Shown: positions 14,930 through 60,910, counted from the stretch's first letter. The stretch is 64,000 nucleotides of DNA from Psammoneis japonica (GCA_008632985.1 QPGO01000086.1:248001-312000); one strand, 5' to 3'. The notes: generated by a model from the sequence alone, not told the origin. Numbers and translations are program-made.

Positions 14930-15479
14930 TGTCAGGTCTTTCACGGCTAGCTGACCGCTACAACACAAAAGCATGCAGGAACAACAAAACGGAACTGCCA
15001 CGACACAACACACACCATTTCTGCACATGGCCGTAGATTCCTGGTACGGATCCACGCACGTAGAAATTTAACGAAGAAAATTCGTAGAATATTCATTCAA
15101 CTTCAACAACAGTGACGTCATCCTCATTTGCATTACTTCAGGGTAGGTGCTGCTCCAACAAAAGGAACGAACATGCACAACACACGTTGAGACAGAGCAC
15201 ATCTAGAGTTCTGTTGTAAGTTTTCAAAGTGCGAGAGGGCCCAGGCTGGGAAGAGGGCAAAGGAAGTGAGCAAAGCATTTGGATTGCTGAAAAGGAAGCA
15301 GAAAGAAGGAGACAGTTGCTGCAGCCAGAAAGAAGCAAAACAAGGTGGGTTCTCGCGGCGTGTCGTGTGACGCCATTCACCCAGGTGGAGAATCGGATGA
15401 TGAAGATGATGGCAACGATGCCTCGGAAGTGTTTGGGCTGGTGGACCTTGGGGGTTCTGACAGTGAGCCTGAAGAGAGC

Positions 15480-15830
15480 TCAGAGGGGATGAGGGAAAAA
15501 AGCTGTGCCAGGAGGGGGGGATGTTGGCAAAGCGGCCAGGTGAGTTCAGCGTCGCGCTGGGATTGGCTGGAGCTCAAGGTGAAGTGGGGCAAGAGTTTCC
15601 AGACTCAGGCTTGCTTGACAAGAATGCTGACCTTGTGGAGGACTTGATGCAGCTTGATGTTGGCTGGCTCCACCTCAAGCTGGAAAAGGAGGGCCAGCAC
15701 TTGCACTTGCTGCTCATGGCCAGCTGCTCCAAAGGGGTGCTTGGGGCATTGAATGCTGAGAGTCACTGTGAGCACATGAACTCAATGGGAAAGCTGGTGC
15801 TGACCAATGGGACCAGCTTTTTCTTGCAGC
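15480..15830 (+). mobile_element. hAT-like transposase C-terminal (dimerisation domain) remnant, TpA-depleted
   Basis: DLVEDLMQLDVGWLHLKL..GALNAESHCEHMNSMGKLVLTNGT resembles the A.S..ER..S motif, with likely Y->H and R->H changes. Confidence 0.55.
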
Positions 15831-16207
15831 AAGAATGTCAACTTGTGATCAGGCATGCCCCCACTTGCAGAGGTGATTCAGAGCTGTGTTGGGGAAGTCG
15901 TGCTTGATGGAAATGGAGTTTGCACAGACCAGCAAAGCTGTGGAAAGACTTGTGAACACCAGCTCTAAACTGTGCAAGCCACACCAAAATGCTGAATCTT
16001 GTTTAGAGAGAAATTTTTGACATGTTCCTGACATTTGCCTCTCTGCAAACTGTGAACTTCTCCCTGCTCAGCTGAAACACAGGGGAGTTTCCACATTGTG
16101 CACTCCACCCATCCATTTTGAAACATGTCCACAACCAAATGGCACCCAAGCCTTTCAGAGCCACCTCTTGACACCTGACAGGTGGAAGACAAAATGACAG
16201 GCTGGCT

Positions 16208-16466
16208 TGTTCATTGTCAAGACTTTCACGACGAGCTGACCGCTGTTGCAAAAGCAGGGACAACACACAACTTCATTGGAAATTGGAAACGGAGCTGCCA
16301 CGACACAACACACCCGACCACGCATCGCAGTGGCATCATTTCTGCACATGGCTGTAGATTCATGGTGCGGATCCACGCACGCAGAAATTTAATGAAGAAA
16401 CTTCGTAGAACATTCGCTCAACTTCAACAACAGTGACGTCATCCTCATTTACATTGCTGCTTCAGG
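16208..16466 (-). repeat. Duplicate of the promoter/5' end (14923..15141) of the DUF6824 gene
   Basis: Shared blocks gttcattgtca, ctgccacgacacaacacac, catttctgcacatggc, cggatccacgcacg and tcaacttcaacaacagtgacgtcatcctcattt. Confidence 0.9.
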
Positions 16467-18379
16467 CTGTGCAGAAAAAATGTGCATTGCTGGCATCCAG
16501 TCATTCAAATGTGAAAGTCTGAGTTTCGTGCTTCAATGTCATCAATTGAAGCTTGAGTGGTCCTGCCAAAGATTGCAAAGGAATGTTCTCACATTTCTTC
16601 CCCAACCACAGAAGCCGGACAATTGAAAGTGTCAACTCCATCTTTGTCCTGAACCAAAGCACAAACACACTGCCCAGCTTTGTGGTGATGGCAAATGATT
16701 GGGCAGCAGCACTTCCTTGTTGGCTGGGAAAGACCTTCAAAGCAATCATGGTCAATGTTGTTGACAAGATCTTGGCCCACACCTGAAAAATGACAGGCGC
16801 ATTTCATGAGGTGGTCAACAATCTCACTTGCATCATCCCCAAATCCTCAAACATGACAGACTCAGGAGACAGTCTTGGAACCACTTGAGTTGACAAGCCC
16901 CATTGAAGTGATCAAGGATCAACACCATGGCTGCAGTCTTTGAGTCTGTGCTGCCCAGAAACCAACAGGCATGTCCACCTGTCATGTGACAAAGGCAATT
17001 GACTGTGCAACAAAAGAATGGCTTGCATTTTGGCACGGCAAGCACATTGCGGCAAGCAGCTGTGGAATGATTGAGCAACACTGTGGCATGCTCTTTGACT
17101 TGCCTGTGGAAGATGGGTGCATTTTGTGCATGACTTTGGGGTCAAATGACTGGTCCTTGGGTGTGTCAAAGATTGTCTCTGGATGCAAGAATGAGGCTTG
17201 GTCCCATCAACAAAAAAGCTTGCCTTTGTGTGCAAGGCATTGATGGAACACACAACATCCTGAAGCACCTCAATGTTTGTGAACTCACAGCAATTGTCCA
17301 CACACAATGCAGGTTTTCCTCAACCCCCAGTCAAATGCAACAGCAGTGTGCACTTGGACCCACAGCAAGGCAAATCCTGAGGACCACATGCAAGCAGCCT
17401 GTGTCGACCTTGACGACATCCCCACACAACACCACGCCATTGCAGCAATCTCACCAAGCCAGTGAAACATGGGTTCTGGGGGTGTTGAGCCAGAAGCGGC
17501 TGGGCCCTCAGCACCAAATCATGAGAGTGCACCTGCTCCTGCCACAGAGGAAAGTGCCATCATGTGTGGGCTTCCCAAGAAAGTGGCGGGGTGGGCTGCT
17601 GACTCTGCTGGCAGATCCAGAGCCAGCAAGCCTGGCAATCACTTGATGATGCCCAGTGACAAGAGCAGCCTCATCTTTCTCACACTCCCTTGGGCTGGGA
17701 GTTTCTAGAAATGGGTGCTGGTTGTTGTGCACTCTTCAGCTCATTGGGAGCAAACCAAAGCTGCAGTTCCAGCATGAGAAACAAGATCAAAAAACACACA
17801 AGACAGTTCAGGAAGTGTGCACAGCTGTTGCCCTTTTCTCCATTTTTGCTCGTCTCTCTTTGTGTGGGTGCGCGCTTGCCTTGCAGCATCAAACAGCAAT
17901 GTGTGCTGCCATCAGAGTTGATTGCCGCCAGAGAGGTCTTGCTGTCAACATGGTCATTTCTTGTTCAGCCTTTGCTGTGTGGATGAGTGGTTTTTGTTGG
18001 CAGCAGCCTCAGCTTTGCTTTTTTCTCTTTTTGTCTCCTTGTTGTGTCAGGGAGTTCTTTTTGCTGCATTCACAGCACATGCTGTTCAGCACTTGTTTGT
18101 CACAAAAAGGTGTGCTTTGTGAGGGTGCATGTTTTGTTCCCTGCCAATGTTTGGTGGCTGATTCTTTGGACAAAACAATGCTTTGACTTTCTCATCATCA
18201 CACCAGCCAGTCAATCAAAACACCTTGGGTGGTTGGATTTTGTGATTGTGGTCTGTTTGGACAATGAGAGATCCCAAGGGCTGGCCTCATTTCTTTTGTC
18301 TCACCTGCCATCCACCCTTCAACCCTTGTGCTCATGCTTTTCTTGCACAGTGGCTCTCAGACCAGCCAAGAAGGTGATC

Positions 18380-19010
18380 CTTTTTTTGCTGGCTCACAGC
18401 ACAGTGGAATCTGCAGAGCAGAAGGCAATGATGTGCAGTCAAGTGCCTGTTTGGTTGTGTGCTGTCTCTCACAGACAGCGCCATGTCAGCAGATTTCTTG
18501 TCATCTCTGGGCACATCTGTCCATGCAAATCTGCTCAAAATCCATCTGCTGATGGCCCCAACATGCACTTGGCAATCTGCGCCAGCAGCAGATTTTTGCA
18601 GATTGTTTGTCAACTGAGTTCTAAACTTGAAGATGTCTGTCTGTGGGTGGGTGAAGCCTGTGTCATTTGGAAAATCATCAGGAGTCTTTGACAGAGAAAC
18701 AAGAAAATGCCCTGGCTCACCCAACAATTGCGCTGCAAAGTGGCACAAAATTTTGCCAAAATCATGCAGAGGTGCACGTGCGTGACATGCAATGTGATTC
18801 AAAAAACATCGATGTCACAGCTCAGCACCACGAGGTCCCACCTGGACCTGGAGCACGTCCGTTGTCATGCTGAAGAGATGACAGCAGCCAACTTCTTCAC
18901 AAAGCCTTTGCACGCAAGCCGACATCACAACTTTCGAAAGTTGATTTCAAACTTGGGTTGTGACACAACAGATGATGAGCATCCACAGGATGAGTGTGTT
19001 GGAGAACATG
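18380..19010 (+). mobile_element. Ty1/copia (CoDi-like) RNase H 3' end remnant with PPT/LTR start
   Basis: SKNIDV followed by EEMTAANFFTKPLHASRHHNFRKLISNLG (copia ADxFTKPL motif), then cacagga.gagtgTGTTGG near 18984-19002. Confidence 0.65.
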
Positions 19011-19640
19011 CAAGAACTTTTGTGCAGAGGTGGTGTGAGGTGCAGACCAAGTTGAGGGTGGATCCACATCCACTGATGGGTCGTTGGAGTGTGGATGACA
19101 CTTTCCAACAGGGAGAGACCTGATGGGTCTTCTTGCTGTTGCAAGCAACCTCAAAAGCAAGCACAAAGAGAACACCCACTGTGTGGTGCATGTCATCCCA
19201 ATGCAGGCCAGTTGCTGCATCGGTGCTGGTCAGGGTGCGTGTGCTCACAATGACCCAGCACACCTTGTCAAACATTGCTCTTGCACACATTCTGCAAAAC
19301 CCACATCTAACCAACCCCAATGGAGGACACAAAAGGGCTCGCCATGGCAGTTTGGAGCTGTCTCAAGCAAAGCCTCACACACAAAAACCAAGAGTGGAAA
19401 CTCAAGCCCTGAGGCCCCACCCACTGAAAGGGAGAAATGACCAAAGAAAACAGGAAAACAGATGTGCTGCAATTGCACGTTGATGCCTGCTTCTCAAACT
19501 TGTGGTTGCTTGTGCTGCAAACATGAAAGGCCGTGCAGCTCTTGTTGCACTTGTTCCAACAAATGCAAGAACAAGGCAGGACCACCTTCTTGCAGCCCCC
19601 AAGCAACAGGAGCTCAGACAAGAAGCCCAAGAGGAAACTT

Positions 19641-19900
19641 GGCCTGTTCCAGCTCCAGGTGCTCCGCGCGGGTTCGATTCCCATCATTTGGAAATTTGTG
19701 CATTTGGCGCAATTGACTTCTTCCAAATCCATTTTTTGCCAAATCGAAGGGTGAGCGCACACTTTGCATGCATTTTCGGGTGCACACTCACCTTTTGATT
19801 TTTGAAACGATCAAAATTGAAGGAGCCAATTGCGCCAAACTGCACAGAAAATCGGCCTCTCGCGTGATGAAAAGCAGAGCACCTGGAGCTGGAACAGGCC
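19641..19900. mobile_element. 260-bp foldback MITE with perfect 24-bp TIRs and 4-bp ACTT flanking duplication
   Basis: ggcctgttccagctccaggtgctc (19641-19664) is the exact reverse complement of 19877-19900. Further internal inverted arms. actt at 19637-19640 and 19901-19904. Confidence 0.85.
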
Positions 19901-20259
19901 ACTTGTGCCCTCTTCCCCAGAGACCAGCCCGCTTCAGTCAAAACTTTGTCAACTCATCAATGCCCCAACCCCTGATGTCAACAACAAAAGAAAGAGTGCC
20001 AAGTCAAACCCAGCATCAACAAAGAAAACAATGCACACAAGAATCAAGAGAAGGGCGTTGACAGTTGACAAGGGGGGGAGATGGCAAGGAGGTGGAAAAG
20101 CTGCCTCAAGGGAAAGAGATCTGTCAGAGAGGAGAAAAAAGACCTGAAGGGAGCTGTCATTTCATCACACGATGGCCCTGGCACCACACCCGACAACTTC
20201 AATGCAGGTGCAGGGAGCACCAGTTTTGTTGAGGCACATGGCGAGACATGCCATCTCAA

Positions 20260-21290
20260 TGATGGCTCTTGTTTGAATGGTGGGGCATCAGACAATCAAA
20301 CTTGGCAAGATTGCTGACACTGGCCAGTGCCCCACCTGCCCCCAATGGTGCAATGTCCCAAACTGATTCACTGGGAAAAGATTTGCTGCAGTGTTGGCAG
20401 CATTGCTGCATGGGTCAAGATGCAAAGTGCAAAGATGGAGCTCAGAAAGGTTCGCAGTGTGCCCAACGGTGATTTTGCAGCAGGGTTGCAGCAAAAATGC
20501 ACCAGGGACATCAAGACCTTGGCAGGCGGATGACTGGGGTGTGGACAAAAAAACACAAAAAGACGCTGATCAAGTGTGCGGAGTGGCTTCTTGCGAGCAA
20601 TCTTAAATCTGCTCAAAGGGACAAACAATCGCCAGAGCAGTGTGCCAACATGCTGATGTCACAAGAAAACCTGCAGGCTGCAGCAAGGCTTGTCATGGCT
20701 GAGTGCAAAAAAGGTGGAAAACTTGCGCTGGATGATGTTGATGAAAAAACAAACAAACCAGTCTTTGATGCGCTGCATTTGAAACATCCTGATTTGAGGG
20801 TTCTGGAAGAAGATCATTTTTGCATGTTTGGCAAATTGCCTGAGTTGTGGACATCATCATCACAGAGGCAGTGCGATCAAAACAGCTGCAAGAAAACAGC
20901 CAGGGAGTGTGAGTCTTTGGATGTCGGATGCCAGCTGGCATCAGAACAACTTCTTCATTGCAGAAAGGCCTGTGCATTGCTTGAAGGGGTGCCACGCACC
21001 ATGTTCCGCTGGGTCAGCAACGGGTCTCCCACTCAGACAGCCTGTTGGGCATTGGCAGCAAAGAGGCTTCTTGGGTGCCAAACAAAAATCTGGGAATCCA
21101 TCCAGTCAGCAGCACAAAAGAGGTCTGGCTGTGTGCTGTTGTCAAAGCCATTCTCTTTGTTGCTGGATCAGAAGCCAAAGAAAGAAGTGTGCAACATGGG
21201 TCAGCTTTTGCCAGCCTGGACAAAGCCAGCATTGCAGGCAGTGCTCATGCTGTGAATGTGCTCTGGGAGCAAGTGACACATGTTTGAAAA
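20260..21290 (+). mobile_element. CRE-like non-LTR retrotransposon RT N-terminal remnant, frameshifted and TpA-depleted
   Basis: Across frames: RWSSERFAV.PTVILQ, KGG.L..DDVDEKTNKPVFDAL..KHP, ARK.PGS, SNGSP....ALAAKRLLG, GIHPV...EVWL.AVVKAIL.VAGSEAK, AG..HAV..LWE. Confidence 0.7.
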
Positions 21291-21604
21291 GTGCCACAAC
21301 TTTCCATTTGTTGCTGCCTCCAATGGATTCCATGAGCTGAGCAGGATTCTGATGCTGCACAATGTGAGTCACATTTGACCATCTGAGGCAAAGTTTGCTT
21401 TCAATTGCTGTGAGCATTGGTTGACCCCAATTGTCTGCAGTCACTTCAGCAGGGTGTCCTTGCCAGGCCTGTGCAGCAAGGAAGGAGTTGCTCAAGGTGA
21501 TTCACATGGCAAGACAGTCTTCTGCAGATTGGGAGTTCTTCTGCTGGTTTGCAAAATGAGTGCTTGATTTCCCAATGCATGCACACCTTGCCACACTGAC
21601 AACT

Positions 21605-21629
21605 CAGCAGCAGCAGCAGCAGCAGCAGG
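21605..21629. repeat. (CAG)n microsatellite at the edge of a TpA-depleted block
   Basis: About eight CAG units directly visible. Confidence 0.9.
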
Positions 21630-21634
21630 GAAAT

Positions 21635-24082
21635 TCAACATCCCACAATGCGGTGCTTGCGGTGCCCCCCCGGAAGTAGACTTTTAGGTCTAACAAGCGA
21701 GCACCACACCATCATATCCACTCTGTATGGTGTGTACTCTGTAGCTATCGGGTCTGTCCTTTGCCCCACTAATGACTTACTAAGCTTCTTGAGTTTGCCA
21801 AGCTCTGACGGGATTGTACCTCGAAGTTCGTTAGCACCGATGTGATTGACATTGGTCAACTCTCCCAGCCACGTCGAAAGCGTTCCTGACAACCAATTAT
21901 CATCTAGATCCAGGTACTCTGTGACAGAGAATAATCGAGAGTTGAGTACGATGGTAGGGCCGTTGAAAGCCATAAAAGAAAACTACTTACCCAAGTGTCC
22001 CAAGTTCGCCAGCGGAGCATGCATCGTTCCGAACAAAATATAATCTTAACAAGGTTCAACGTTCGAAGATTCTCCAGTGCCACCATCGACAGCTTCTACG
22101 TACGGAGTTTCAAGGTATTCGTATTCGTCATCATCGTCAGTATAATTGTATGCAACATCATCGTATGGATAATTATTGTGTCCAGGCGGTCCAGGAGCCA
22201 TGGTGGCAGACAAGGTCACGGGCGTGGCAACAGCACAAGGACATTCGGCTGAAATTGCTACCTGAAAAATGGTGCAAAGGACATCCGGGATCGTGCCGTT
22301 TTCTGCAAACTCGTTGAGCTGTCCACAGTTGACAGCGGTAGGCTCAATGATGAGGGGAGGGAAGTTGTCCAAAGTATTGATCTTGTCAATAGAAGACTCG
22401 GCGAATTCCCCGTCACCACAGATTGGGCATGGGTCGTAGTATTCTCCCTCAATTATGACTGCATCGTCGTCCTTGGATATACATTCAACAGGTTTTTCAG
22501 TGGGAGGCTTGCCCCAAGCTTCCGTATACTCGTCATCGTCGCCATCGTTGTAATCGCCAAAGTTGTATTCTCCATTTCGTGATTTCTTTTCTAGTACTGC
22601 AATTGTTTCAACCATTTGCTCGTATTCTGCGTCTTGTTCCTCATACGCCTGAGATAGATCTTCGTATCCATAATCCTCTGTCGCCAACTTACGATCCCGC
22701 AAAGTGACCTCCCAGCGGGTGGTTTCGTAGTAGTCGCGATCAGTGCAATCCACTCCATACCAGGTACAAACACTCTTGCCAGACAATCCAATTGGGGGCG
22801 AATTTCCGCTTGCGCTCGTCCTCCTCATACGGGGCTCGTGATTGATCCGGTGGCACCCAAAGTACTTTAGTACAAGGTCGCCAACGCATCGCGCTGGACC
22901 AACATGAGACAGGTGGGTGGGGCCTGTGCTTCGTCTTCTTCGGCCACCACAATAGAGCACGCTGTATCGGACAGGATTTTTGGGTCTTGGTAGCGGGAGG
23001 TTGGAGCCGGAGCAGGTAGGAGATGGGGTACGACGAGGTGGCTCATTGCAATTCACGGACGAGCCAGAGAACATGCGATTCGCTGAGCCGGAGATAACCT
23101 GAGTGCTAGAAAACAACCTAACGTTGCTCTTGATGGTTAGGGCTGTTCCGCCTACTGTACCTCGCTATCCGACGTGATATTAACCTTCCCGCCCTTCTTC
23201 TGTACATTCCCAATAATGTTCCTTTACCCGTAATCTTTGCTTGTTGGATCTGAAAGACACCATTGGGTGTTGAGCACGACAGTGTTGTTCTTTCCACTAA
23301 TCAAGGTGACATCGGAAGAAATGATTGACAGATCACCATCGTTGCAGATAAAACTATCTTTGGTACCATACGATGACAAATCTAACACGCCGCGCAAGGA
23401 AGACATCGTAACATCACATTTCTCTTGGGCAAAAGCTTTCAATGCTTTTCTCGCATTCTTTTTCATACTCGATAGATCTGCACTTTGATTGACTATGCCG
23501 TCATCGGGGGCGGTTGCTCGAGGCTCGAAGTGAGAGCTACCGTTGACAACCTAATTACTCTCAAGTAAATCATAGCTGGCTCCGCACAAATCTCCAAAGA
23601 TAGCTGCTTCCAAGCTCCTCTTGTTTTTCACGACCACCTTCTTCCTTCCTCTATCCGACAGCATCAAGACGGCGCAACTACCAGCAGATCGCAGCGTTTC
23701 AATGGCATTTTCACATTTCTTCTCGGGCAAATAAGCAGCAAACAGAAGGGAGAAATTCGAAATAGAGTTTGTGGGTATATGGTTAGCCGGAAGCAAAGGT
23801 AAATTGTGAAAGGGAATATGATTAATCAACGTAGATCACCATTGTCTCTACGCACCACAGAAGCGAGCAGATTCTTATGGGGACTGGAGCCGGCATTGCT
23901 TGCCATGTTTCCGCGCAACATTGCTCCAAGGTCTAAGAAAAGCATGACGATCGCAGTGAGTCTCCTACATATCAGCGAATTCTGCAGAATTACGAAATAT
24001 CGCATTTCACACTATACCTGTTGCATCGCTTATTGCCAAACCAAGGAGGCAAAGGATTGCTTTGCACGAGGCCATCATCTTT
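21635..24082 (-). pseudogene. Degraded paralogue of the LRR/ice-binding-like gene at 8108..11937; 3' LRR exons lost at the repeat block
   Basis: Colinear similarity (LRSAG.CAVLM.SDRG.KKVV, VNC..PPRRT.SPT, KSVCTW.GVDCTDR, EYL.L..NWLSGT.S.WLGEL) with multiple frameshifts and deletions. Confidence 0.8.
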
Positions 24083-25448
24083 CGAACTCAGCGTTTTTGC
24101 TTGTTCTTTTTTACGACGGAACAAACCGAACAGCTCATTGTTGCCTTGTAAAAAGAGATATATTCTCACGAACGTACCGATAAGCAGGGACTCGACAAGA
24201 AATTCAAAATTAGCGCTGCCATGCAAGAGTGATATAACCGCGATCTCACCATTGACGGTGATGCGAATTCCGCACCAATAGCGGGCGCTGTCTTGTTCAC
24301 CTCTCCAAACGTTGCAAAGGTTCAACGCGGGTGACAGCAGCTTTTGACAACGCGACACAAAGCGTCAGTACCGTCGGCGGAACACCCCAGTATATCAAGT
24401 ACTTATTCAATTTCCTCGCAAACAACTCCATAGCCTAAGCGAGAGGACCTTCATTGCTTTTATCAGCATTATTTTTTGGAGGTAATTGCCACAGCAAACG
24501 ACCTGATCAATCGATATAGGGAACTGCCATCAACTGACGAGACAAGAGTGTCTTGGATACGTTTCATGACATGCTTTTATGGGATCGATGACAGGTGATT
24601 GTGACGGAGACACAAAGCGCCACAGCAACACCTCTCAGCTCGGCAGAGTCCAAATCAAATTCGATGAAAGCACTGCACGATGTTCAGCGTGCAGATTTCA
24701 GAAGAACTGTGTAGACGGCAGGGCCCTGCTTCTCTAGTAGAGAGTAGACTCCCTCTCTAGAGCTAGCAGCAAGAGAGTAGAGACAAGACAGAAGACACTT
24801 CTAGAGTCTCAATTAGTGGCTTGCGTTGCCGCATCCATCCTCCATCCTCCATGCCATCGCATACGGTACGGTATAGATAGACTACATCTTCGGCATGGGA
24901 TTCGCCATCTCGGTCGTCTGCTCCTCAGTCTGCTCCTCATCCACCCCCAGCCACATTCACGTAGAATTCTACTCAGTTTTGTACCAGATCATATCTTTTG
25001 CTGAGAAAAAATGAGAAGGGAGGCTGGCGCGAGTGAGGTCATTTTCCAAATTCGCAGTTGTTAAGTACAATTTTGGCGGGAAAGGAGAGATTTATGCCCT
25101 ACAGTCATTTTTCAAGTGAATGTCCGACCAGCATTGCCCCATGTTTTCGAACACCATTTTTTAAGGATCGAGAGCCTCACGCACGCCGACTCACGACCAA
25201 ACGCAGGTGCGGAGAAAAGACTTTTTCACGAAATACAAAATACCGCTGGGACTCATCAAAGCCACGTAACAAACAAGGAAAGACTAGCGTGAGCGTCACA
25301 GCAGCAAAAGGATTTACCCCGATAACTCTCTCCTGAGGAATTACGAAGTTTCGAGTACCGCAGTCACCACCTCGACCCGACTCTCCAGCTCCCACCCTGA
25401 TTCTTGAAACGAAGAAACACTGGAAGTTGTAAACAGATTGGACTTATT

Positions 25449-26920: not shown

Positions 26921-28159
26921 TTATTTAGCTTCGTCGATATTTTCTTTTTCCCCTGTGCTTCCAGATGGTGCGGATTCCTTTTGTTGACTTTCTACGTCCT
27001 CGTCATTGCCGTTGTCGTCATCTATTCCGTATCTACCAATCGTTTGGAGCTGGTGGACCGGATTTGTCACTTGAGCGTCCAAATCTTTATCATACAGTTC
27101 ATCTCCGCTAGCGTCAGTATTCTCGTCAGAATCATGCTGGTCAACACATGTCGTCGTCTCGTTGGTCGTTTTGCACAGAATGGCAAAAGTCATCCGTACG
27201 ACATGCACAGCCGCCCGCGGAACTGAAGAATGAGGATTCTTCTGAAGAAAACGATCATAGCGGGGACGAATGTAAACGAGCGCGTTCAGAAAGCCGTGGA
27301 GGGGGAGAAAGATTACAACCAGTAAAGGAATGATAAACGGAATGTCCTTCTTCATGGTTTGTCGACAGCGCAATACTGTGGAAGGCATCAAGGAGATGTA
27401 GAACGCACCCATATACAGGAATGCTTGCCATGCCACTTGCCGGGATAGTCTCGTGAGCTTATCCTTCCGTGATTGGCTACTACGAGAAGATCTGTACTTG
27501 CGTGACTTCTTTTCTCCCGCCCATACCGTCCAAGATACTACTGCCATGGCAAAGGTCGAACAGACAATGCAAAACCATGACGGCACATACATGAAAAGCC
27601 ATCGGTACAGCCAGGCATTGTCACCTCGAATGCATTTACCACTTGAGGACCTTGCGTTAGAACATGTCTGCGGTAACGAAGATATCCAGCACCATAACGA
27701 AGCATTGTTGTATAGTGTCAACGGTAGGCCAGCGATCGCGGTGCCGAGTCCGAACACTAACGGCCCAATGAGCATCCACTTTTCAATCTTCTTTATGCGG
27801 AACTCACTCCACTTGAATGTGATGACCAAGAGATAATAGATCGAGAGGAAGAAATTAGTCAATGGATAAATTGTGTACGTTTGAATAAAGAATCCTTGAA
27901 GGGTACACGATTGCGTTGTTCCCGATGCACCGTAAAGTCCGGTTTCGCTTGGAATGGGCCACGTGCTGAGAAAGAACATGAGCGAGGGCAAAATACTACC
28001 GCCAACCATGCCCAACACCAAGCGAGAGTATGTTTGTTTCCTCTTTGTTTCGTTTCTTAAAATGTCCGCGACAATGACAAGAGCGCCAATAATCGAGAGA
28101 GCGCCCGTTGCTTTTGGCACAATGGCGAGGGATCTTTGCTGACGCACAGAGAAGCTCAT
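26921..28159 (-). CDS. 7-TM GPCR-like protein (cAMP-receptor/Git3-like diatom family)
   Basis: Seven hydrophobic segments; motifs LSIIGA, Y.RLVLG, CTLQGFFIQ, LSIYYLL, WCWI and PLHGFLNALVYIRPRY. Confidence 0.85.
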   Translation of the reverse strand: MSFSVRQQRSLAIVPKATGALSIIGALVIVADILRNETKRKQTYSRLVLGMVGGSILPSLMFFLSTWPIPSETGLYGASGTTQSCTLQGFFIQTYTIYPLTNFFLSIYYLLVITFKWSEFRIKKIEKWMLIGPLVFGLGTAIAGLPLTLYNNASLWCWISSLPQTCSNARSSSGKCIRGDNAWLYRWLFMYVPSWFCIVCSTFAMAVVSWTVWAGEKKSRKYRSSRSSQSRKDKLTRLSRQVAWQAFLYMGAFYISLMPSTVLRCRQTMKKDIPFIIPLLVVIFLPLHGFLNALVYIRPRYDRFLQKNPHSSVPRAAVHVVRMTFAILCKTTNETTTCVDQHDSDENTDASGDELYDKDLDAQVTNPVHQLQTIGRYGIDDDNGNDEDVESQQKESAPSGSTGEKENIDEAK

Positions 28160-28639
28160 TGTTTGGTCATGTGGGTGAAATTGTTTCTTTATAGCAAATG
28201 AAGTGGTACGAAGCTTTGGTGCTCTGCTTCAAACTGCAGAAGCATTTTCATTTAATGTCTCGCAGTGTCTTAACTTTTGAAGGCTCGGAGATCATCGCCC
28301 TGCCAGAGTGGAGACATTGGCAACGTGACCAACAATCAAACACCCACCTCGTTCTCACTTCTCGCCATGTATCACGTGTCGATACGATTGCTAGACAATC
28401 ATACAGTAGGGACGGACAACGTCTTGAAGTTGAAGAGGTGTCACGCTGATAGAATTTGAAGATTATCACGCGAAACCGCAATCTCATTTTTTCAGTCGTG
28501 GATGCGCTCACGCGCGCAAACAGAACCAGTGCCATGGCATTTTATTTGACGACCCATTTGAGACTGTCAAAGGTTCGTCATCATGCCTCGGAGTGCATGG
28601 CAAGGAAAGTGTCATTACAAGAAAGAAGCACGCGTCAGA

Positions 28640-30180
28640 TTTTCTCCGAAAACAACTGAACAAATCACAACAAGTTTCTGTGTTCATCACAAGGCCACAA
28701 CTCTGCCTTGGTTTCACAGCCACACCCCCCCCTGCGTGTTTTTCTGCACAAGCTCTGGCGCAGATGTCGCTTTTCTCTGACGGTGCAACGACGGTTCTTA
28801 CCTGCCTGTTCAGACATGTTCTTTTATTGACATGCCTTTGTTCTGTGATCATTGGCAATCTTGTGCAGTGGAAAACGATTGGCATCAAGCCCCCTTTCAG
28901 CTTGTTTGCTCGGCACTCTTCTCAGCATTTTTCATTTTCAGTGTGAGTTGGTGGTCAATTTTCACTTCTCCTTTCCTTCTCATGTTGAAGGCATTCCAGG
29001 CTGCCTGTTTTGCCTTTGCAGGCAGACCCGATCCCAGGAAGATGGCCTGATCAAAGCATTGAGCACTTTCCTTTTGAAGCCCCGCTGTGGCTGCTGGCCC
29101 TGTTTTTGTTGTTGTCAGCTGTTTCTGGTGGGCACCACAGCTTTGTGGCATCAATCTCGACTGGCTGATTGTCATGAGCCCCTGCTGCATCGCATGATGT
29201 GCTGGGGGTGTGGGTTGGCTTGTTGCCGGAGTTGCAGGGCGGAAGCATGGCAGCACTTTAAATGCGCAGAGTTTGGGTTTTGGTTTGTGCTCATCACAAG
29301 GCCAGTTGTCCATTTGGTTCCAACCAAGAAACTGTTAGCTCAAATGGAGAAGATTGCATGCTGATGATCAAAGCAGCACAAAGCAGGTGCAAATGGATGC
29401 CACAAGAATTCTGAGCACAGCAAGGATGTTTTGAGTGGACAGGCAGCTTCGCTCCATCTGCGCCAGTTTCTCTCAGTGCTGTGACACCCATTTGCCTGAC
29501 ATGATGGAGTTGATTCTTTGCAATTTCAGCCAGTGTGAGTGGCAGCCTGCAACATGTGCAGGGATTTCTTTCAACTTGCATCAGGTGCTCTTGACGCTGA
29601 ACAATGCAGCAACAGGCCTCCCTGCCATGCCAACAAATGTCCATGGCAGAAGGACTCAAGTGACAAATCTCGGAAGAAAGTGGACAACATGGCCATCATG
29701 TGCATTAGCCCTCCTCATGTTGCTGCAGCAAGACAAGATTTGAGGTCAGTTTTCATGACAAGAATCTGCACTGGGTGTGAGGGAAAAAGCAAGTGTCGCT
29801 CACAAGCACTGCAATGAAAAGGAGTGACAAGCAGCTTTGTTGGCTGAGAACTGTTCAGACTGTGCACACACACACAATGGATGCCAAGAGAAAGCATGAT
29901 GCAAATCATTGCCATCCCCATTGGCTGCACTCTGTGCTTCTTGAAGTGCAGCTGCATGGACAGTGGAAAGCTAGAAAGGATGGGAGACTGGACACTTCTG
30001 GACAAGAATGAGGACTTTGGTGTCATTTGGCACTGGAAAGTGTCGCTTTGTTCAATTTGAGGAATGGGAGGGGAGTTGCAATGTTGCCATTGACTCACAA
30101 ACAGAAAGAATCTTGCAGCAAGGTTTGGCGTGCAATGGCAAAAGCCACGAAGAACTGGAAAATAAAGAGCAGTCACTGGA
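28640..30180. repeat. TpA-depleted decayed repeat block, family not identified
   Basis: Only a handful of TA dinucleotides in ~1.5 kb; overlapping Tyr-free Cys/His-rich ORFs in all frames. Confidence 0.65.
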
Positions 30181-33205: not shown

Positions 33206-33349
33206 AGCTACTTAGGGACGAAAGAAAGTCAAAAATTACTTATCAGTGCACCGCTGTGCACCGGAAACTATGCCAGTGCACTTGAAGTGCACCGCCCCCT
33301 TCAACTAAGCACACGTCACTATCTCAAAATATCACCCCCCCTCTGGTGC

Positions 33350-41710: not shown

Positions 41711-41714
41711 CATT

Positions 41715-42146: not shown

Positions 42147-42240
42147 CAGCAATGTCACTCCCGCATGTTGTGCGAGGTGACGAAATCTGCAGAAACGAAA
42201 CTGCGAAATGTTGGCAGGACCGACAAATCTTAAAACGACC

Positions 42241-43283: not shown

Positions 43284-43319
43284 GAAGGGGGCCGACACGA
43301 CACAGGTGGTTTTGGTGCA

Positions 43320-44486: not shown

Positions 44487-44525
44487 GACATCCTGTCACT
44501 TAACGGCCCTGATCATGGGGGAGTG

Positions 44526-44961: not shown

Positions 44962-46117
44962 CATTGCCATGGTGTCTGCCAGGCTACAAACAGCAGACAT
45001 GGTCAAAATGACAAGCCCAACAGAAAAATGACACAGACAGAACACCAGACTGTTTGTCAAAAAGAATGTCTTGCTTTGCCTCTTGTTGTGTTCTTGCTTT
45101 GAGCTCTTGTTCTTGTGACAATGTCGTGCCAAGGTGGCTCAACAAAAATGTGAACAAATGACAGGTGTGCCAGCAGATGCAATGGATGCACTGCCACTCT
45201 GGCCACTGAGCTGGCTGCCAGAGAGTGCTGGAGAGTGCTGGCAAGTGGATGGCGGGGAGGCTTTGAGAGCAACAACAAGCACGCATGCATTGTGCAATCA
45301 TTGCCAACGGTGCTCACGTGAGTCATCAGGCATCACACGCCAACTCCTTTTCACTGGCCACCCGGGCAAGTGATGTCAAAGTTTTGTTTGTGAGCGAGTG
45401 AGTGACAGTGTCCAGGTCACAACAGGAGTTCACACGTGTGCAAGATGTGATGAGTTTGCATCGATTTTTACAAGAGTTGTCAGGAACTGACATGACAGTT
45501 TGTCACGGAGCATCCGGGCTGCAACAGGAATTCGCAGATCCTGCATGTGCAACACATGGCAAATTTACATTGATTTGACTGTCACACACAATGACTTGTT
45601 GCCCTTTTGCACATGAGCTGTGCAGCACACATGCATCTTAGACTGACGGTTGATTCACGTGACCTTGTTCTGACAGAGCCAGCCAGCCGGTGCTGCACAC
45701 CAACCCCTGTGGCATTCTGCATCACACACCAGAACTTTCAATTGTTTGCAGACACCGGTGTGTCATTGAAAATTGACAACCACTGATTTTTTGCTTGTGA
45801 CATGACCACAATGACACACTCTGTTGCACAAGTTTGGGCCCCACCCCGGAACAGTTGCCAAGCCATTTGGGCACAGCTGTGTCAACGAGATGCTTGTGGA
45901 ACACACACATCTCATTGGCTTGGCAATTCTTCATGGTTCGCAAATGAACAATGGCAAAGGTCTCATGTGTTGTTTCATTCATGCACTTGGCATCAATCCC
46001 AGTGGAAAACCTGCGCAGGCTTGCTCTGAGCTGCAAGCGCGCATGCATGCTGATGACCTTGTCCAGTCTTGCCATGGTCAGTGCCCCCCCTGAAGGGCTT
46101 GTTTTTCATGCACTGCC

Positions 46118-46825
46118 AGCTGCTTTAAATGTCACCACCTGCTTGCTCCACAACATGATGAGGGGCTTTTGTTTTCTTTTGGCATTTCTCTTTGTGTCAC
46201 AGTTCTTTGCTTCTTTGCAATTTCACCAAATGCAAGTGGCTCAACAACATCCCAGAGAGTGTTTTTAACTCACGTCAAATTCTGTTGATGTGTTGAACAA
46301 CACAGTTGTCAAACATCTTGTTGAACCATTTTTCCAAGGTGCTCAACAAAAATGCGCATCAAAGTTCTGTGTGGATGTGAATGTTCTCTCTCCCGTGAAT
46401 GAACACCATGAAAACCAGGGCCATCACAGAACTGATGCACACAAGAGGAGGACATCACCAATGAAGAAACGTTCTGCCTCATTGCTGAAACGAAACAATG
46501 GCTGTCAGGATCGGGATGATTGGCATGACAACATCACTGACTTGATCACACAGCATCAGGACAGAAACAGTGTGAGAGCCAATGTCCAACTTCCTCTGGG
46601 TTGGGGCAAAACATTGCTTGCTCTGGAGAGATGCTTGCAAGGTTGACCAAGGAAGGAGCAGGTCCCAATCAATCAAGAGTTCAGTCTGCAGTTTATGCAA
46701 CACTGAGGCTCACAATGGAAGACAAAATTTTCACTTCTTGAACAATTGAAAAAATGGGAGGGACATTGTGGGGTGCCATGGTGTCACAAGGAGGATGGGA
46801 CGAAACTTGGAAATTGGTCAGACAA
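46118..46825 (+). pseudogene. Second, internally deleted copy of the helicase-HA gene (5' region joined to one HA repeat)
   Basis: Aligns to ~35229..35794, then jumps to QWKTKFSLLEQLKKWEGHCGVPWCHKEDGTKLGNW. Confidence 0.85.
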
Positions 46826-47004
46826 GAGAGAGGAACAAAAGTTACGAGCGACGGTGTTCTTACATCATTATTTCTGACGACCGGTCAAAATGCTAATAAC
46901 ACATGGCTAGCTTCAAGTCGTTATTAAACCAATCTTTCATCATCTCTCCACATAGGACGCGACGACGTTCCTAGTAAAAAGGACTGGAGGTGCCAGAAGT
47001 TTCA

Positions 47005-47862
47005 TCACCAGTCTTCCTCGTTATATGTTTCCTCATCAGCTTGTCCTTTAGATAGCTTTGACATGGTTCCGCCAAACGCGGTCCCGTGATAGGCGTTGGC
47101 TCGACTGTTGCAAAGAGTTTTGTGCGTTGCGCTTTCACTGTCGTTCTCGTCGCTGTCTTGTTCATCCCTCCGACTCGACCCGACGATTTCCCACGCTACA
47201 AACTGACGCCTTAGCGACTTGATTGTTGTTTCATTTTGGAGCATTCTGACCAGTTCATGTTGCAGTTTGCCGTGGCGATAGCAAAACAAAGTTGGCAGAT
47301 TGGCGTCGGGCCAATTGGGTATCGCGCTTTTGGACGGGATTTCCACAAACTTGACGTGCGGATATTGATGGGCCATTTCATGTATAGACTTTTGAAGCAA
47401 TTGAGAAAGCACGTTTGAGCCAGACGTCAACACGACAATTGCCCAACATGCTCGACTGGATTCATTAACCTCGCGTGTCCATTCAGGTCGTGAAATAGTA
47501 ATGACATCTCCAAAGGTTGGAATCTTGTTTTGCTGCAAAGACTCTTGCTTCATTTCCGAGAGACGCATGGCACGGTATTTCTCTAAAAACTCGTCGTCAC
47601 TGTCTTGATACGAATCATCATCATCACTACTTGCAGAATTAACGTCGTCAACACGGCATATTGGCGTAGTTTCTGCTGATTGGTTATTGTGCTGCTCAAC
47701 CAATTGCCGAGCACGAGTCACGGATGCACCCTTTCCCACCAAGACTTGTTCCATATCCACAATGCCTCGTTTTATCAGTTCATCGTCAAATTCCGTAGTG
47801 CACCTGCTGAAACCAAACGATGGTTTGTCTGTCGCATAACTTGTGACGCCACGTCCCTCCAT
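47005..47862 (-). CDS. PDCL3: Phosducin-like protein (PhLP2/PDCL3/Plp2 type)
   Basis: TEFDDELIKRGI, FLEKYRAMRL.EMK, FG.V..ISRPEW..EV and VKFV.I....IPNWPD.NLPTLF.Y. Confidence 0.85.
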   Translation of the reverse strand: MEGRGVTSYATDKPSFGFSRCTTEFDDELIKRGIVDMEQVLVGKGASVTRARQLVEQHNNQSAETTPICRVDDVNSASSDDDDSYQDSDDEFLEKYRAMRLSEMKQESLQQNKIPTFGDVITISRPEWTREVNESSRACWAIVVLTSGSNVLSQLLQKSIHEMAHQYPHVKFVEIPSKSAIPNWPDANLPTLFCYRHGKLQHELVRMLQNETTIKSLRRQFVAWEIVGSSRRDEQDSDENDSESATHKTLCNSRANAYHGTAFGGTMSKLSKGQADEETYNEEDW

Positions 47863-48394
47863 TCTTGTGTGAGATACACTACCTATATTACTGCCTGAAT
47901 GGCACTCTCAAATCCCAAAATGTGACAATGATGGTTATTTAGAAAATGCAATGGTGCTGTGTGCTGTGTGCCTTACGTATGCGTCAGCGGAAGAAGCGGG
48001 CCATGGGCCATTGACCATTGCGATATCACGGCGTGGGTGTGCGATATTTTTTGGAAATTCAATCAAACTCTTAATCCTTGTATAAAATTTATAAAAGAGA
48101 GACCCGGAAATGGCTGTTTCGCTTTCCCGCACTTTTTTGCTTTGTACTCCTAAATGCCGAAGCTCGGCGATAATACACTTAGAACTTAGACTATGCATCG
48201 TCTCTGTATCATCAACTCATCGCCTATCGCCTTCTATCTGCAAATTGAAAAACTGGACGTCAGTTGATAAGCTGAGCAACGTAAAAGCATCACTCCCAAC
48301 AACTTTTGCTCAAGCAGACTGCTATTAGCACGAGAGCCTTCTGAGAACCATTATACTCGTAGATATTTTCATCATCATTATTTCCTCCTCATCG

Positions 48395-52911: not shown

Positions 52912-52954
52912 AAAGACGTAGAGAAGATATGATAGTAGTAATAGTAGTAGTTAT

Positions 52955-53222
52955 GTCGATCGTTTATTGCTGTAAGTCTCTTCCTTAGAAGAACTCCAAT
53001 TCTACTAGCTTCGAACACTACTTCTAGCTACAGCATTACATCGTGTTGATCGTCTAACGATGGATCGAAGTAATAGTAGTAGTTTGAACTATGCGAAAAT
53101 GATGTCGATCGTTTATTGCTGTAGTTTCTTCCTTAGGTCTCTGATTCTAGTATCGAAACATAGCACATTCGAATAGTACTTCTACCTAGCGTAGATCGTG
53201 TTGATCTTTTTAACGATGGATC
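52955..53222. repeat. Diverged tandem duplication (~150 bp period) between convergent genes
   Basis: gtcgatcgtttattgctgta, cttccttag, atcgtgttgatc and taacgatggatc each occur twice. Confidence 0.85.
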
Positions 53223-57644: not shown

Positions 57645-58059
57645 TGATGGTCCCAAAGCTACCTGTATTCCTACATTATTTTCGTAATACACATGATGTT
57701 TGATATATGGGAGTCATCTCTAGCTAGCTATTGGCAGAGCTCTGTCTAGCTATTAGTGCTAGATAGTAAGAGCCAGCAGAGAATACTGTAGAAGAAGGGC
57801 ACTGTATGCGCCAGCTCGCGACAAAGCAATGTCAAGCATAATTCTTATTTTACATTCTCACATCCAGGGATGTCATCAGTCTTTTTTTCATAGAAAGGGG
57901 GTTTTGCGCGGTTATGAACATGGAAACGAACATGGAATTGAGTTATTGCGCGCGTAAGTGTTCGAGGTAATCTGCGCACGGAATTTGAATCGCATCTGGC
58001 GCCAACTCGGTCGTCTCATGGGGACATCGTAGCCAGTTCGCTAATGTTGAATGTGGTCT

Positions 58060-59983
58060 TGAGTCAGCTTGATGACAGCATCTCGTACAGGCCATGACGG
58101 CATGTGCATTGCTTTGGCGCTGGCACAAAGACAGACCGGCACACCACCATCTTCCCAACCTGGGCGTCTGGAGCTGATCTTTGAAGAAGGAATCCATGAT
58201 CTTCTCAAGCAAAGATGTGTTGCTCTAATGACAGCAATGCTTTCATGCTTTAGAGTCTGGTCTCTGCCATTTGTCAGATGTCTTTTTGAGACATCTGGCA
58301 CAGGACAGCACGCGCTTCCTTGCCATTCAGGCCATCGCATGACACCACAATGGGCAAGAAGTGACGGCGTTGCTCAAGGCATGGCTTGAGATGCTTGCAC
58401 TTGTTCTCCTTTTTGTGGTCCAGTGGGACTTGTCATGAGGTCTTGGAAGCACAAGAGGGTGGTGCATCCATGTTGGCTGCTCTGACATTTGTGTGACCAG
58501 GGCTGCACTTTTGTCCCACAACCCTCCAACTGAACAAGAAAGATTTCCACGGTTGCCATCTCTGGAGTTGTTGCCAACAGCAACTTGGCTCAACAGGCCA
58601 TTGGGTTCACTGTTGGCTGTTGGGCTTCTGACCAGCAGGGTTGACAAGAGGTTGGTCAAACAGACAGCTGGTCTGCCCTTCTTGTGCTGAAGGGCAGCAG
58701 CATGCTGCATGGAGAAATTGCAGTTGCATCCACCACAAGCCTCTTCAGCAAGTCAGAGGGGCTCTTTGCCACAATGCAGAAAAAGGCAGTTTTGAAATTG
58801 TTGACATGAAAGTTTGGTGCCGTTCAGTGTGGATGGGCACGCTGATGGCCAAGCACCAGCTTTGGTGCTGTGCCTTGCTGTGTGGGATTTGAGAGTGTCT
58901 TCATCATGCTTTGTGGCTTTTCCTGTTGGCAACTGCCATGCTTTCACCTTGTGTGCATTGCGTCCTTGTGAACTGCTGTGCTGGTGAATTGCATGCACGG
59001 CCGGCTGTGGAGCAAATGATCAATCTGCAATCATGTGGGAGCACGCATGAGAGTGCTTGCTCCTTCAAAGCTCTGCTTTGCAGAGCAGGAAAACAAATGG
59101 GATCATGTGCTGGAAGCACTGTAAAAAAGACCAGTTTTGGCTGCAAGGAGGGTGCCTTTCAGCTTTCTCGTGTGTCTGTGATGCACTGTGATGCAACACA
59201 CCAGAAGTGGCTGTGGAGCACATCGCAGCACATCATGTGTCTGCAACACACATTCCAAAATCACCGCATGCAGTGCATCGCTGCATTGAGTGGTCTAACG
59301 TCATCATCGACTCATGTGTTTTTCTGGTGCAGCATGTTGCAACATTCCACAGGGTGGTTAAACTCCTCATGATGAACAATTTCCCAGTCATCAGTGGGAA
59401 GTGTTGTTTCATCAAAAAACCATTGCTTCAAAACCATCACAATCAATGTGAGCATCTTGTGCAACTCTGCTGTCACATGCATCAAGAGCACTGAGGAAGT
59501 GGCAAAAGAGCTCACCCTGCTCCTCAAGCACACCTTGAGAAAATGGTGGAGTGTGACAAGCTGCCTTGCATTGACAAAAGCAGCACGACTCAGGCAGCAC
59601 CCACAAGCAATTAAAAGAGAGAAAGGGCTTCTGGGAATGACAGGACTTGTGCTTCAATTCAGAGAAGGGGAACTGACAAAGCATTTTTGGATGGAGTGAT
59701 TGTGCCAAGTTGCCCAAAGCATGCTCCAGTGCCCCCAGGCACTGAAAAGCCTCGCATTGAACCAGGCACCATTGAAAGAAGCTGAAGTGACAAGTGCAGT
59801 GAAAGAGTCCATGATTTCTTCTGACTTGGGTGCTGTTTTTGTCTGCCCAGAAATCTTCAACAGCAGAGAGCTGATGCTGATGCTGCCCCACCAAAGGGCG
59901 GCAGCTTCAGCGGTGGAGGCTGGGTGCAAACAATGGTCAAGTGCCCCCAGCACAGTGCGCCATTGCATCTTTCAGGGTGCACC
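58060..59983. repeat. TpA-depleted decayed repeat block, family not identified
   Basis: Very few TA dinucleotides; Tyr-free overlapping ORFs. Confidence 0.65.
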
Positions 59984-60910
59984 TGAGTTTTGGTGTTGTG
60001 CAGATCACAGACTGAACTCTTGATTGGTTGGGACCTGCTCCTTCCTCAGTCAATCTTGCAAGCATCTCCAGAGCAAGCAATGTTTTACCCCACCAACCTG
60101 GAGGAAGTTGGACATTGGCTCTCGCATTGTTTCTGTCGCAGTGCTGCTGCACGATCGAGTCAGTGATGTTGTCATGATGACCATCCCAATCTTGATGGCC
60201 ATTGTTTCATTTCAGTGATGAGGCAGAACGTTTCATCGGTTGTGTCCTCCTCTTCTGTGTGTCAGTTTTGTGATGGTCCTGGTTTTCATGGTGTGTTCAT
60301 TCACGGGGGAGAGAACATTCACGTCCACACAGATCTTTGACGCACATTTTCGTTGAGCATCTGGGATTGACGGTTCAAAGAGACATTTGACGACTGTGTC
60401 GTTCAACACATCGATGGAATTACCACCTTCTTCTTATGAAGAAATCCCACTCAACCATCTTCAATGTTTTTTCACATGTGTGGCCGAAGGGCGGTGTTGA
60501 GAAAGGAAAAAGATTCGTGGCGTCACCTGAAGAGATTGGCAGCAGCCATGGGAGACACCATGCACCTGTTGGACATTGGAAGGATGACATCTGTGAGAGC
60601 TGTCTTGGTTGCTATGACGACAATTACGAATGTCATTGGTGCCTCTACAACATTCTCTGGGATGTTGTTGCGCCACTCACACTGGTGGGTGAAATTGCAA
60701 AGAAGCAAAGAACTGCAACACAAACAGAAAGACTAAAAGAAAACGAGAGCATCTCATCATGTGAAGTAAGCTGGTAACATTGAACGCAGCTCTTACCACC
60801 TGTCCTAAAGTGGCGGCTTGATTCTGGCTCCGCTGGACTGTTCGTGAGATGAACAACGTGAACACCATTGGATTGCGGCGATGATCTCATCTCATCATCA
60901 TCCGTGCGAT
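59984..60910 (-). pseudogene. Third, 3'-truncated copy of the helicase-HA gene 5' region (inverted), with ~220 bp of extra sequence
   Basis: Reverse complement matches ~35113..35794, including acgaacagtccagcggagccagaatcaagccgccactttaggacaggtg and RANVQLPPGW.GKTLLALE. Confidence 0.88.

Follow-up and report, generated by a model that had tools for sequence, protein, structure and literature searches.

Tracts almost devoid of TpA in the diatom Psammoneis japonica and the probable action of a TpA mutator on resident DNA

A 64,000-nucleotide stretch of the diatom Psammoneis japonica (GCA_008632985.1 QPGO01000086.1:248001-312000; hereafter the window, with positions counted from its first letter) contains six blocks of DNA almost devoid of the dinucleotide TpA (TA). 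The blocks, termed tracts, occupied intergenic spaces and stopped near genes whose open reading frames (ORFs) carried DUF1499, questin oxidase, DUF6824, glucokinase, phosducin, carnosine N-methyltransferase, and DHHC domains, tract 4 beginning 95 bp upstream of the glucokinase ORF. The best named glucokinase relatives, with 50-60% identity (Phaeodactylum 60%), come from pennate diatoms, and the highest identity of any relative was 66%, which places the window in a pennate diatom lacking a close sequenced relative in the collection searched. Their nameable content was one gypsy long terminal repeat (LTR) element and three copies of a helicase/helicase-associated (HA) gene. A preliminary description made from the sequence alone had reported six sharply bounded TA deserts of ~17 kb, and a two-state hidden Markov model (HMM) run on the TA positions of the whole window returned the same six, all with borders within ~330 bp of those first given and with a total length of 18,335 bp:

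15218-21676, no strand assigned: tract 1, 6459 bp, 10 TA, TA observed/expected ratio (o/e) 0.02, CpG o/e 0.24, TG 1.80, CA 1.75
28465-30162, no strand assigned: tract 2, 1698 bp, 8 TA, TA o/e 0.07, CpG o/e 0.37
35245-37429, plus strand: tract 3, 6 TA, CpG o/e 0.54
39748-43357: tract 4, 8 TA
44986-46842, no strand assigned: tract 5, 6 TA, CpG o/e 0.33 and 0.20 in its two parts
58087-60612, no strand assigned: tract 6, 9 TA, CpG o/e 0.23 and 0.50 in its two parts

The averages over 64 kb (TA o/e 0.47, TG and CA o/e 1.33-1.35, TC o/e 1.09) conceal two states, the TA-poor blocks and the remainder. In sliding 500-bp windows, the six blocks held 0-5 TA per 500 bp (o/e 0.00-0.15), with the mean o/e of TG and CA at 1.5-2.06 and CpG o/e mostly 0.04-0.6, whereas the remainder held 8-49 TA per 500 bp (o/e 0.3-1.1). 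TA o/e was bimodal among 128 non-overlapping 500-bp windows, lying below 0.15 in 32, between 0.15 and 0.30 in five, and at or above 0.30 in 91. Taken per tract, TA o/e was 0.02-0.07 with TG and CA at 1.5-2.0, and all tracts together contained 47 TA compared to 808 expected at the TA density of the other 45,665 bp. Every border was resolved to <100 bp: the 60 bases just outside the tract contained TA and the 60 bases just inside had none. CpG o/e was 0.24-0.57 per tract (sub-parts down to 0.20) against 0.97-1.06 outside.

The loss of TA also shaped the reading frames. Six-frame translation gave 0.05% tyrosine in the tracts versus 2.52% outside, with cysteine at 6.11 versus 3.73% and histidine at 4.96 versus 3.46%, while stops fell to 2.69% from 3.74% and ORFs of ≥75 aa rose to 7.3 from 4.4 per kb. 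The tyrosine-free ORFs exist because TA was lost, and ORF length was rejected as a sign of coding since ~10 tract ORFs of ≥170 aa are expected at 2.69% stops and 13 were counted. The preliminary description was thereby borne out in its further claims of TG/CA enrichment beside TA-rich neighbors, of dense tyrosine-free and Cys/His-rich ORFs produced by TA loss, and of reduced CpG (o/e 0.20-0.57, compared to about 1.0 outside) coinciding with the deserts.

The content of the tracts was searched by Pfam on the 134 tract ORFs of ≥75 aa, by six-frame read-through with X at stops (15140-21642, 39900-45102, 28465-30164, 58087-60002, and 44986-46202; for the stretches 39748-39899, 46203-46842, and 60003-60612 only ORFs were screened), and by tblastn searches using 120 gypsy pol proteins and 7 helicase proteins. 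Helicase_C, HA, and RVP were the only Pfam families in the 134 ORFs and in the read-through. The features identified in and beside the tracts were:

41715-44963, plus strand: gypsy LTR element, LTRs with TG...CA ends
41715-42148, plus strand: 5' LTR, in the erased half
42537-43283, plus strand: gag, in the erased half, with HMMER homologs
43284-44486, plus strand: protease and integrase remnant (RVP), reverse transcriptase/RNase H deleted near 43894
44526-44963, plus strand: 3' LTR, in the unerased half
35366-38055, plus strand: remnant of helicase copy A (Helicase_C 6e-7, HA 8e-15), a pseudogene with in-frame stops; tract 3 fades within its HA tandem repeats
46155-46856, its segment of tract 5 counted from 46118, plus strand: helicase copy B, by homology to copy A, in tract 5
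59976-60418 with DNA homology to 60868, minus strand: helicase copy C, in tract 6, last 256 bp outside the tract
39748-41714, no strand assigned: old part of tract 4, 3 TA in 1967 bp, CpG o/e 0.22, TG 1.99, CA 1.67
tract 1, 39748-41714, 44986-46117, and 58087-59975 (all old) and tract 2: unclassifiable tract DNA by Pfam, read-through, and tblastn
30713-33354, minus strand: Crypton-like insertion outside the tracts, 2642 bp flanked by GATAC, with a 737-aa ORF at 30998-33211

About two thirds of the tract DNA was unclassifiable, giving no Pfam family in ORFs or read-through and no tblastn match to the 127 proteins. Neither a non-LTR reverse transcriptase nor a transposase was found by Pfam, read-through, or tblastn, and no viral genes were seen in the tracts. 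The claim of the preliminary description that the deserts cover every repeat class thus stood for the gypsy LTR element and the duplicated helicase gene; non-LTR elements, DNA transposons, and miniature inverted-repeat transposable elements (MITEs) were not identified in the tracts, the "MITE" being just a 262-bp imperfect palindrome at 19640-19901 in tract 1. This tract also holds a partly erased duplicate (16207-16458) of the 5' end and upstream region (14922-15137) of the DUF6824 gene, in which four sites were TA outside and TG/CA inside the tract and one was the opposite. A paralogous gene pair with a weak leucine-rich repeat match (9752-11942 and 21775-24083; 70-76% DNA identity) flanks tract 1, both members having normal TA, and short tandem duplications with ~115-175-bp units of 67-75% identity lie in normal DNA at 1425-1782, 52953-53222, and 63242-63613.

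The change was recorded in the gypsy element, in which the left half (41715-43357) held five TA in 1643 bp with CpG o/e 0.91 and GC 0.547 and the right half (43358-44963) held 105 TA in 1606 bp with TA o/e 0.96, CpG 1.08, TG 1.11, CA 1.15, and GC 0.475. The border at 43357 inside the element was as sharp as the others, and the unerased part ended on the right at 44985, 22 bp past the 3' LTR. The element sits between older tract DNA with CpG o/e of 0.22 and 0.33, and pol relatives of 1000-1100 aa matched only 30-34% of the query, namely the protease and integrase parts. Of 23 TA sites in the 3' LTR, 22 were changed in the 5' LTR (12 to CA, 10 to TG) and one was shared, with none reversed, while five of 34 CpG sites were CA/TG in the 5' LTR, again with none reversed (Fisher p 0.053). 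The remaining differences between the LTRs were ~3 substitutions and one 4-bp indel, with one T/C difference outside TA. This corresponds to 3.1 changes per TA (-ln(1/23)), 0.16 per CpG, and ~0.005 per other site. The LTR pair therefore indicates that TA is lost ~20 times faster than CpG decays and several hundred-fold (~600) faster than other sites change, such that, by the same comparison, when ~95% of TA is gone ~15% of CpG has decayed and far fewer than 1% of other sites have changed. Within these tracts CpG is also converted to TpG/CpA, but more slowly.

Logan contigs (31-mers) from one sample, runs X1 and X2, were compared with the window over 28001-48000, their depths not being copy numbers. 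Summed word depth for the gypsy family was 13,750-22,864 compared to ~60 in the flanks. Two contigs at about single-copy depth joined 41845 in the 5' LTR to 44660, the corresponding position in the 3' LTR, which could be a solo-LTR form of this or another locus. The segment 28668-29334 in tract 2 displayed likeness to many other contigs, and one contig joined 29245 to 41715 such that the multi-copy piece of tract 2 (28668-29262) directly precedes the start of the gypsy LTR elsewhere in the genome of that run, a junction that hints at nested or preferred insertion.

The LTR pair alone cannot give the direction of change, which three outgroup tests supplied. In an alignment of the helicase pseudogene, whose relatives include a Pseudo-nitzschia multistriata protein, with six relatives from other organisms, none of five conserved tyrosines was kept (four Cys, one His), compared to 12/15 phenylalanines, 2/2 tryptophans, and 19/21 leucines. 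In gag, aligned with 50 HMMER relatives, none of three tyrosine columns was kept (His, Cys, His; codons CAT for His and TGC for Cys), a fourth column with 44% Tyr reads Cys, and the 248 aa contained no tyrosine, the median among the relatives being 2.06%. Taken together, helicase and gag kept zero of eight tyrosine columns (five Cys, three His) versus 46/57 F/W/L columns (Fisher 1.5e-5). The composition of the unerased gypsy half was not like what repeat-induced point mutation (RIP) leaves, with ordinary TG and CA, and the GC difference between the halves is predicted by A:T to G:C change in the erased half and not by C to T in the other. The tracts are mutation products and not native composition, and on the outgroup and GC evidence the direction of change is TA to TG/CA.

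The helicase copies show change on chromosomal DNA after insertion or duplication. Among the three copies, 41 dinucleotide columns varied only among TA, CG, CA, and TG, of which 13 had CA in one copy and TG in another, seven had TA in at least one copy, and 21 had CG kept. This pattern indicates that the copies decayed independently after duplication. The HA domains of copy A form a tandem array at 37055-38078 of five ~205-bp units with one HA domain each, a sixth isolated unit lying at 46728-46824; the five units hold just 2-6 TA each, and the TA gradient along the array is uninformative. An in-frame stop in copy A at 36457-36459, TGA in the window, was read as CGA by a near-identical contig; the stop therefore arose by CpG to TpG and is polymorphic or strain-specific.

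Erasure affected the two strands equally and depended on flanking bases. The 12 CA and 10 TG outcomes alternated freely along the LTR (11 runs), a TG/CA imbalance at p<0.01 occurred in 1/59 300-bp tract windows compared to 5/148 outside, and no strand-biased blocks of TG or CA were found in the tracts at that window size; both strands were thus hit alike, with every site resolved independently. When each TA was sorted by the base after its two adenines, one per strand, the 47 survivors in the tracts comprised 28 with a purine after both adenines, 19 mixed, and none with a pyrimidine after both, against 329, 1049, and 630, respectively, outside (chi2 65, p 7e-15). The TTA/TAA context accounted for 40/47 survivors versus 756/2005 TA outside, and TTAA for 12/47 versus 76/2005. 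Survivors in the young tract (41715-43357) were CTAA, TTAA, CTAA, TTAA, and GTAG. Sites with a pyrimidine (Y) after both adenines are erased first, and YTAR (R, purine), above all TTAA, lasts longest. An attempt to derive the choice of TG or CA for each flank from tetranucleotide gains and losses was dropped, as gains were unequal to losses and the assumed ancestral composition was wrong; its survivor counts alone were used.

The public contigs speak to the reality and age of the tracts. Contigs at a baseline depth of ~60-73 reproduced them with 0-9 differences per contig, which speaks against a base-calling artifact. Among the differences listed, contigs at single-copy depth had at least 13 against the window, of which 12/13 were at TA/CG versus TG/CA steps: four TA versus CA/TG, one TG-versus-CA pair (two positions), six CG versus TG/CA, and one other. 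Eleven lay in tracts and two (30409 and 30411; TA in the window, CA in the contig) ≤250 bp outside tract 2, both being among the nine differences, all at Y-R steps, of a contig over 29216-30479. No differences were listed for contigs over 2074 bp of flanking genes or over 28001-28766. Among the places listed, near-identical genomes thus differ here almost only at TA/CG steps, which suggests recent and probably continuing activity. Contigs of run X2, labeled "DNA?", displayed GT..AG joints and the run may be RNA; parts of the tracts without X2 cover give no evidence either way.

Intermediate states were also present. The DUF6824 duplicate in tract 1 had lost four TA and kept four, and the Crypton-like insertion had lost at least six. 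The latter is polymorphic, with X1 and X2 contigs joining 30712 to 33355 and contigs both with and without the insertion. No Pfam family was found in its 737-aa ORF, for which the nearest Atlas clusters were NDC10_II, DUF3435, DUF3504, Phage_integrase, and GCR1_C (scores 0.95-0.97), a set which we take to mark Crypton tyrosine-recombinase elements as a lead and not as proof. Summed depth was 380-680 compared to ~60 in the flanks, with many similar contigs, and TA o/e was 0.53, like the surrounding genes. Of nine listed differences, six were CA/TG in the window versus TA in other copies (p 3e-4), and this copy looks like one in the first steps of erasure. X2 contigs skip 92 and 84 bases of the insertion (31784-31877 and 30981-31066) at GT..AG on the plus strand, antisense to the ORF, one such contig being very deep (1790.8); a spliced antisense transcript or a deletion form may explain the skips.

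These observations bear on how the tracts are targeted. The Crypton-like insertion, the unerased gypsy half, and the 70-76% paralog pair were spared, so copy number alone does not bring erasure. Nor is targeting set by element borders: one tract border falls inside the gypsy element, the left edge of tract 3 lies 91 bp within the helicase segment shared with copy C, and the right edge of tract 6 lies 256 bp within it, while tract 5 ends within ~20 bp of the end of helicase copy B.

A tract-limited TpA mutator very probably exists in this DNA. The tracts would be islands between genes, made up of defunct mobile elements and gene copies that this local mutator has rewritten in place, converting TpA to TpG or CpA when either of the two adenines in the palindromic step undergoes an A:T to G:C transition. 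The proposed chemistry, held at a little under even odds, is that a TadA/ADAT2-like deaminase converts adenine in DNA to hypoxanthine, which is read as G when the DNA is next replicated. The natural target of the TadA/ADAT2 family is tRNA A34, which always follows U33. It is an evenly balanced question whether the enzyme is directed to silent, CG-methylated chromatin and not to element class or copy number. The process would act in genome defense, as has been proposed for the chlorarachniophyte Bigelowiella natans (Mettrop et al., bioRxiv 10.64898/2026.01.13.699255). The whole statement, consisting of the in-place TpA mutator with this chemistry, targeting, and defense role, is given a probability of about 0.6. 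It is a tentative and rather doubtful extension that diatoms and chlorarachniophytes share an old, still active defense enzyme that edits adenine in double-stranded DNA at TpA, prefers TAY over TAR, is steered to silent 5-methylcytosine (5mC) chromatin, and acts gradually per generation and not in a single sexual burst.

Several points weigh against this interpretation. No target-site duplication was found for the gypsy element (CCATT left versus TTGCC right), which may have recombined between an erased copy and a fresh one, been patched by gene conversion from a fresh copy, or be a half-erased single insertion; in the first two cases the border at 43357 would mark a crossover and not how far the mutator reaches, and the LTRs need not have started out identical in a single insertion. 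Among LTR sites with TAY on one strand and TAR on the other, the TAY strand was hit in 8/11 (p 0.11), which is not significant alone. The contig sample is maybe that of the assembly itself and so not independent, and its differences from the window may equally be alleles or strain differences. Parts of the tracts had no other contig at ≥88% likeness, such that their repeat nature is not shown there; fast divergence of erased copies is a possible reason. Lastly, a TA-poor stretch was present in 0/26 metagenome loci with related gag (minimum 500-bp TA o/e 0.34-0.64), found with search patterns that favor intact copies; either erasure is not general among carriers of this element family or erased copies escape the search.

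Among 150 gag relatives, seven had <0.6% tyrosine, and two of these (P0298 and P0263) carry His/Cys at five and four of eight tyrosine columns, a pattern that offers a lead. Two short metagenome contigs with related gag (L013 and L023) had GC 0.46 like the window, CpG o/e 0.22 and 0.61, TG 1.70 and 1.64, and TA 0.47 and 0.62, consistent with CpG decay and perhaps mild TA loss.

A reversed process with RIP-like gain of TpA from CpA, or alternatively foreign DNA that natively avoids TA or a sequencing artifact of modified bases, has a negligible probability: the LTR pair would by itself allow either direction, but at the Cys/His positions of the window the relatives from other organisms have Tyr, the TA-bearing gypsy half has ordinary TG/CA and GC, and discordant CA and TG between helicase copies needs a TA or CG ancestor. 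As to artifact, 31-mer contigs at depth ~60 reproduce the tracts, which fits accurate reads, in which modification of A or T would leave the base call unchanged. Nearly as improbable is ADAR-like A-to-I editing of double-stranded transcripts fixed by reverse transcription of retroelement RNA, despite the preference of ADAR for a 5' U and the known hyper-editing of retroelement RNA in animals. Gene copies that are not retroelements and unclassifiable DNA were erased too, which rules out such editing as the general cause; moreover, the copies went separate ways once duplicated, single TA steps distinguish near-identical contigs, erasure reached ~95-99% at TA only, and one gypsy half was erased and the other not. 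To our knowledge, ADAR does not occur outside animals.

Two further alternatives accept mutation in place and change either its targeting or its chemistry. Homology targeting as in fungal RIP, in which duplicated DNA above some length and identity would be sensed, both copies mutated, and chromatin marks follow, is unlikely, although all identifiable tract content is repeated (the gypsy family at its great depth, the helicase piece three times), a threshold could explain the sparing of paralogs of only 70-76% identity, and tract 5 ends close to the end of a duplicated helicase segment. The fresh gypsy half and the Crypton-like insertion are multi-copy yet have normal TA, two tract borders lie 91 and 256 bp within the helicase repeat, and the main hypermutable region of B. 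natans is reported as single-copy (bioRxiv 10.64898/2026.01.13.699255). In place of deaminated adenine, a TET/JBP-type dioxygenase might oxidize thymine in TpA of silenced DNA to 5-hydroxymethyluracil (5hmU) and 5-formyluracil, with mispairing to G giving T to C. This explanation is still less likely, though a T hit on one strand gives the same sequence as an A hit on the other and the flank rule reads equally well as RTA first and YTA last. 5-Formyluracil mispairs with G, but 5hmU itself pairs with A and we know of no 5hmU in diatoms. TET/JBP makes 5hmU in dinoflagellates, where it helps silence transposons, and 5hmU in Crypthecodinium prefers TA and TC (PMC11572971), whereas TC was undepleted across the window and Ser/Leu codon use in the tracts does not suggest loss.

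The in-place TpA mutator has practical consequences. Erased transposons escape homology searches, as in the two thirds of tract DNA that match nothing; LTR dating must exclude TA and CG sites; and the tracts increase GC and accumulate long ORFs without tyrosine, which gene callers may mistake for genes. A TpA-specific DNA mutator, otherwise described in one 2026 preprint on an unrelated alga, would now be placed in diatoms, a major phytoplankton group with transformable and CRISPR-tractable species in which a hunt for the enzyme is practical. If it is an adenine deaminase acting on resident duplex DNA, the enzyme would be of interest for base editing, and if the enzyme is shared with chlorarachniophytes, nature would possess an A-to-G editor of double-stranded DNA, and RIP and APOBEC would be joined by a third mutational genome defense. 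The window contributes the rate ordering (TA ~20x CpG), the flank rule, strand symmetry, and signs of continuing activity.

Among known systems, RIP of Neurospora and other fungi is in its logic the nearest classical parallel, alike in its in-place dinucleotide transitions in repeated or mobile DNA, its sparing of genes, and its compositional islands and cytosine methylation. Its direction is opposite, as RIP changes C:G to T:A at CpA, making TpA and lowering GC, whereas here TpA is destroyed and GC raised; RIP was rejected on this direction test (GC 0.547 in the erased versus 0.475 in the unerased half, and the outgroup tyrosines). RIP also depends on cytosine chemistry via RID/DIM-2, compared to the probable adenine chemistry here, and is premeiotic and homology-triggered, whereas here multi-copy elements keep normal TA. 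Methylation-driven CpG decay by deamination of 5mC shares the loss of CpG to TpG/CpA, seen in these tracts, and yields identical end products, but explains the CpG part only; TA loss is ~20 times faster per site and in 41715-43357 took place with CpG o/e at 0.91. CG methylation of diatom transposons, which the preliminary description had called established, is indeed in print, being described as DNMT5-dependent, and diatoms also encode DNMT4-class enzymes (PMC9998398), which has no bearing on whether the process here depends on them. APOBEC and ADAR of animals likewise hypermutate mobile or viral nucleic acid, and ADAR prefers a 5' U, but they act on single-stranded cDNA (C to U) or double-stranded RNA while the element replicates, in contrast to resident chromosomal DNA on both strands, non-retroelement DNA included.

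The closest system is that of B. natans, whose preprint was the only description of the TpA to TpG/CpA signature retrieved by the full-text searches, which gave none on diatoms. In its mutation-accumulation lines, 231/302 mutations fell in two integrated viral regions, and 230 of those 231 were A to G/T to C, all on TpA, with some lines having none (Mettrop et al., bioRxiv 10.64898/2026.01.13.699255). The reported rate was ~1e-7 to 1e-6 per site per generation, ~1000-fold above background; TA-poor, CA+TG-rich clusters elsewhere in the genome were enriched in reverse-transcriptase and DDE domains, and an ADAT2-like protein was proposed as the candidate enzyme (bioRxiv 10.64898/2026.01.13.699255). 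The organisms differ, a stramenopile diatom and a rhizarian, as do the targets, which are a retrotransposon and host-type gene copies here and integrated giant-virus and virophage DNA there. Erasure is near-complete here (TA o/e 0.02-0.07) against 0.45 in the viral region, the mutations were caught de novo there and deduced from copies and contigs here, and the CpG decay and the sparing of YTAR do not appear in the Results and Discussion of the preprint. In both, only TpA is hit, giving TpG/CpA in bounded regions with the rest of the DNA ordinary, and the rate excess is of the same order (3.1 versus 0.005 per site in the LTR pair, ~600-fold, compared to 1000-fold). In these respects, the sequence of the P. 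japonica tracts matches the same kind of process as TpA hypermutation in B. natans.

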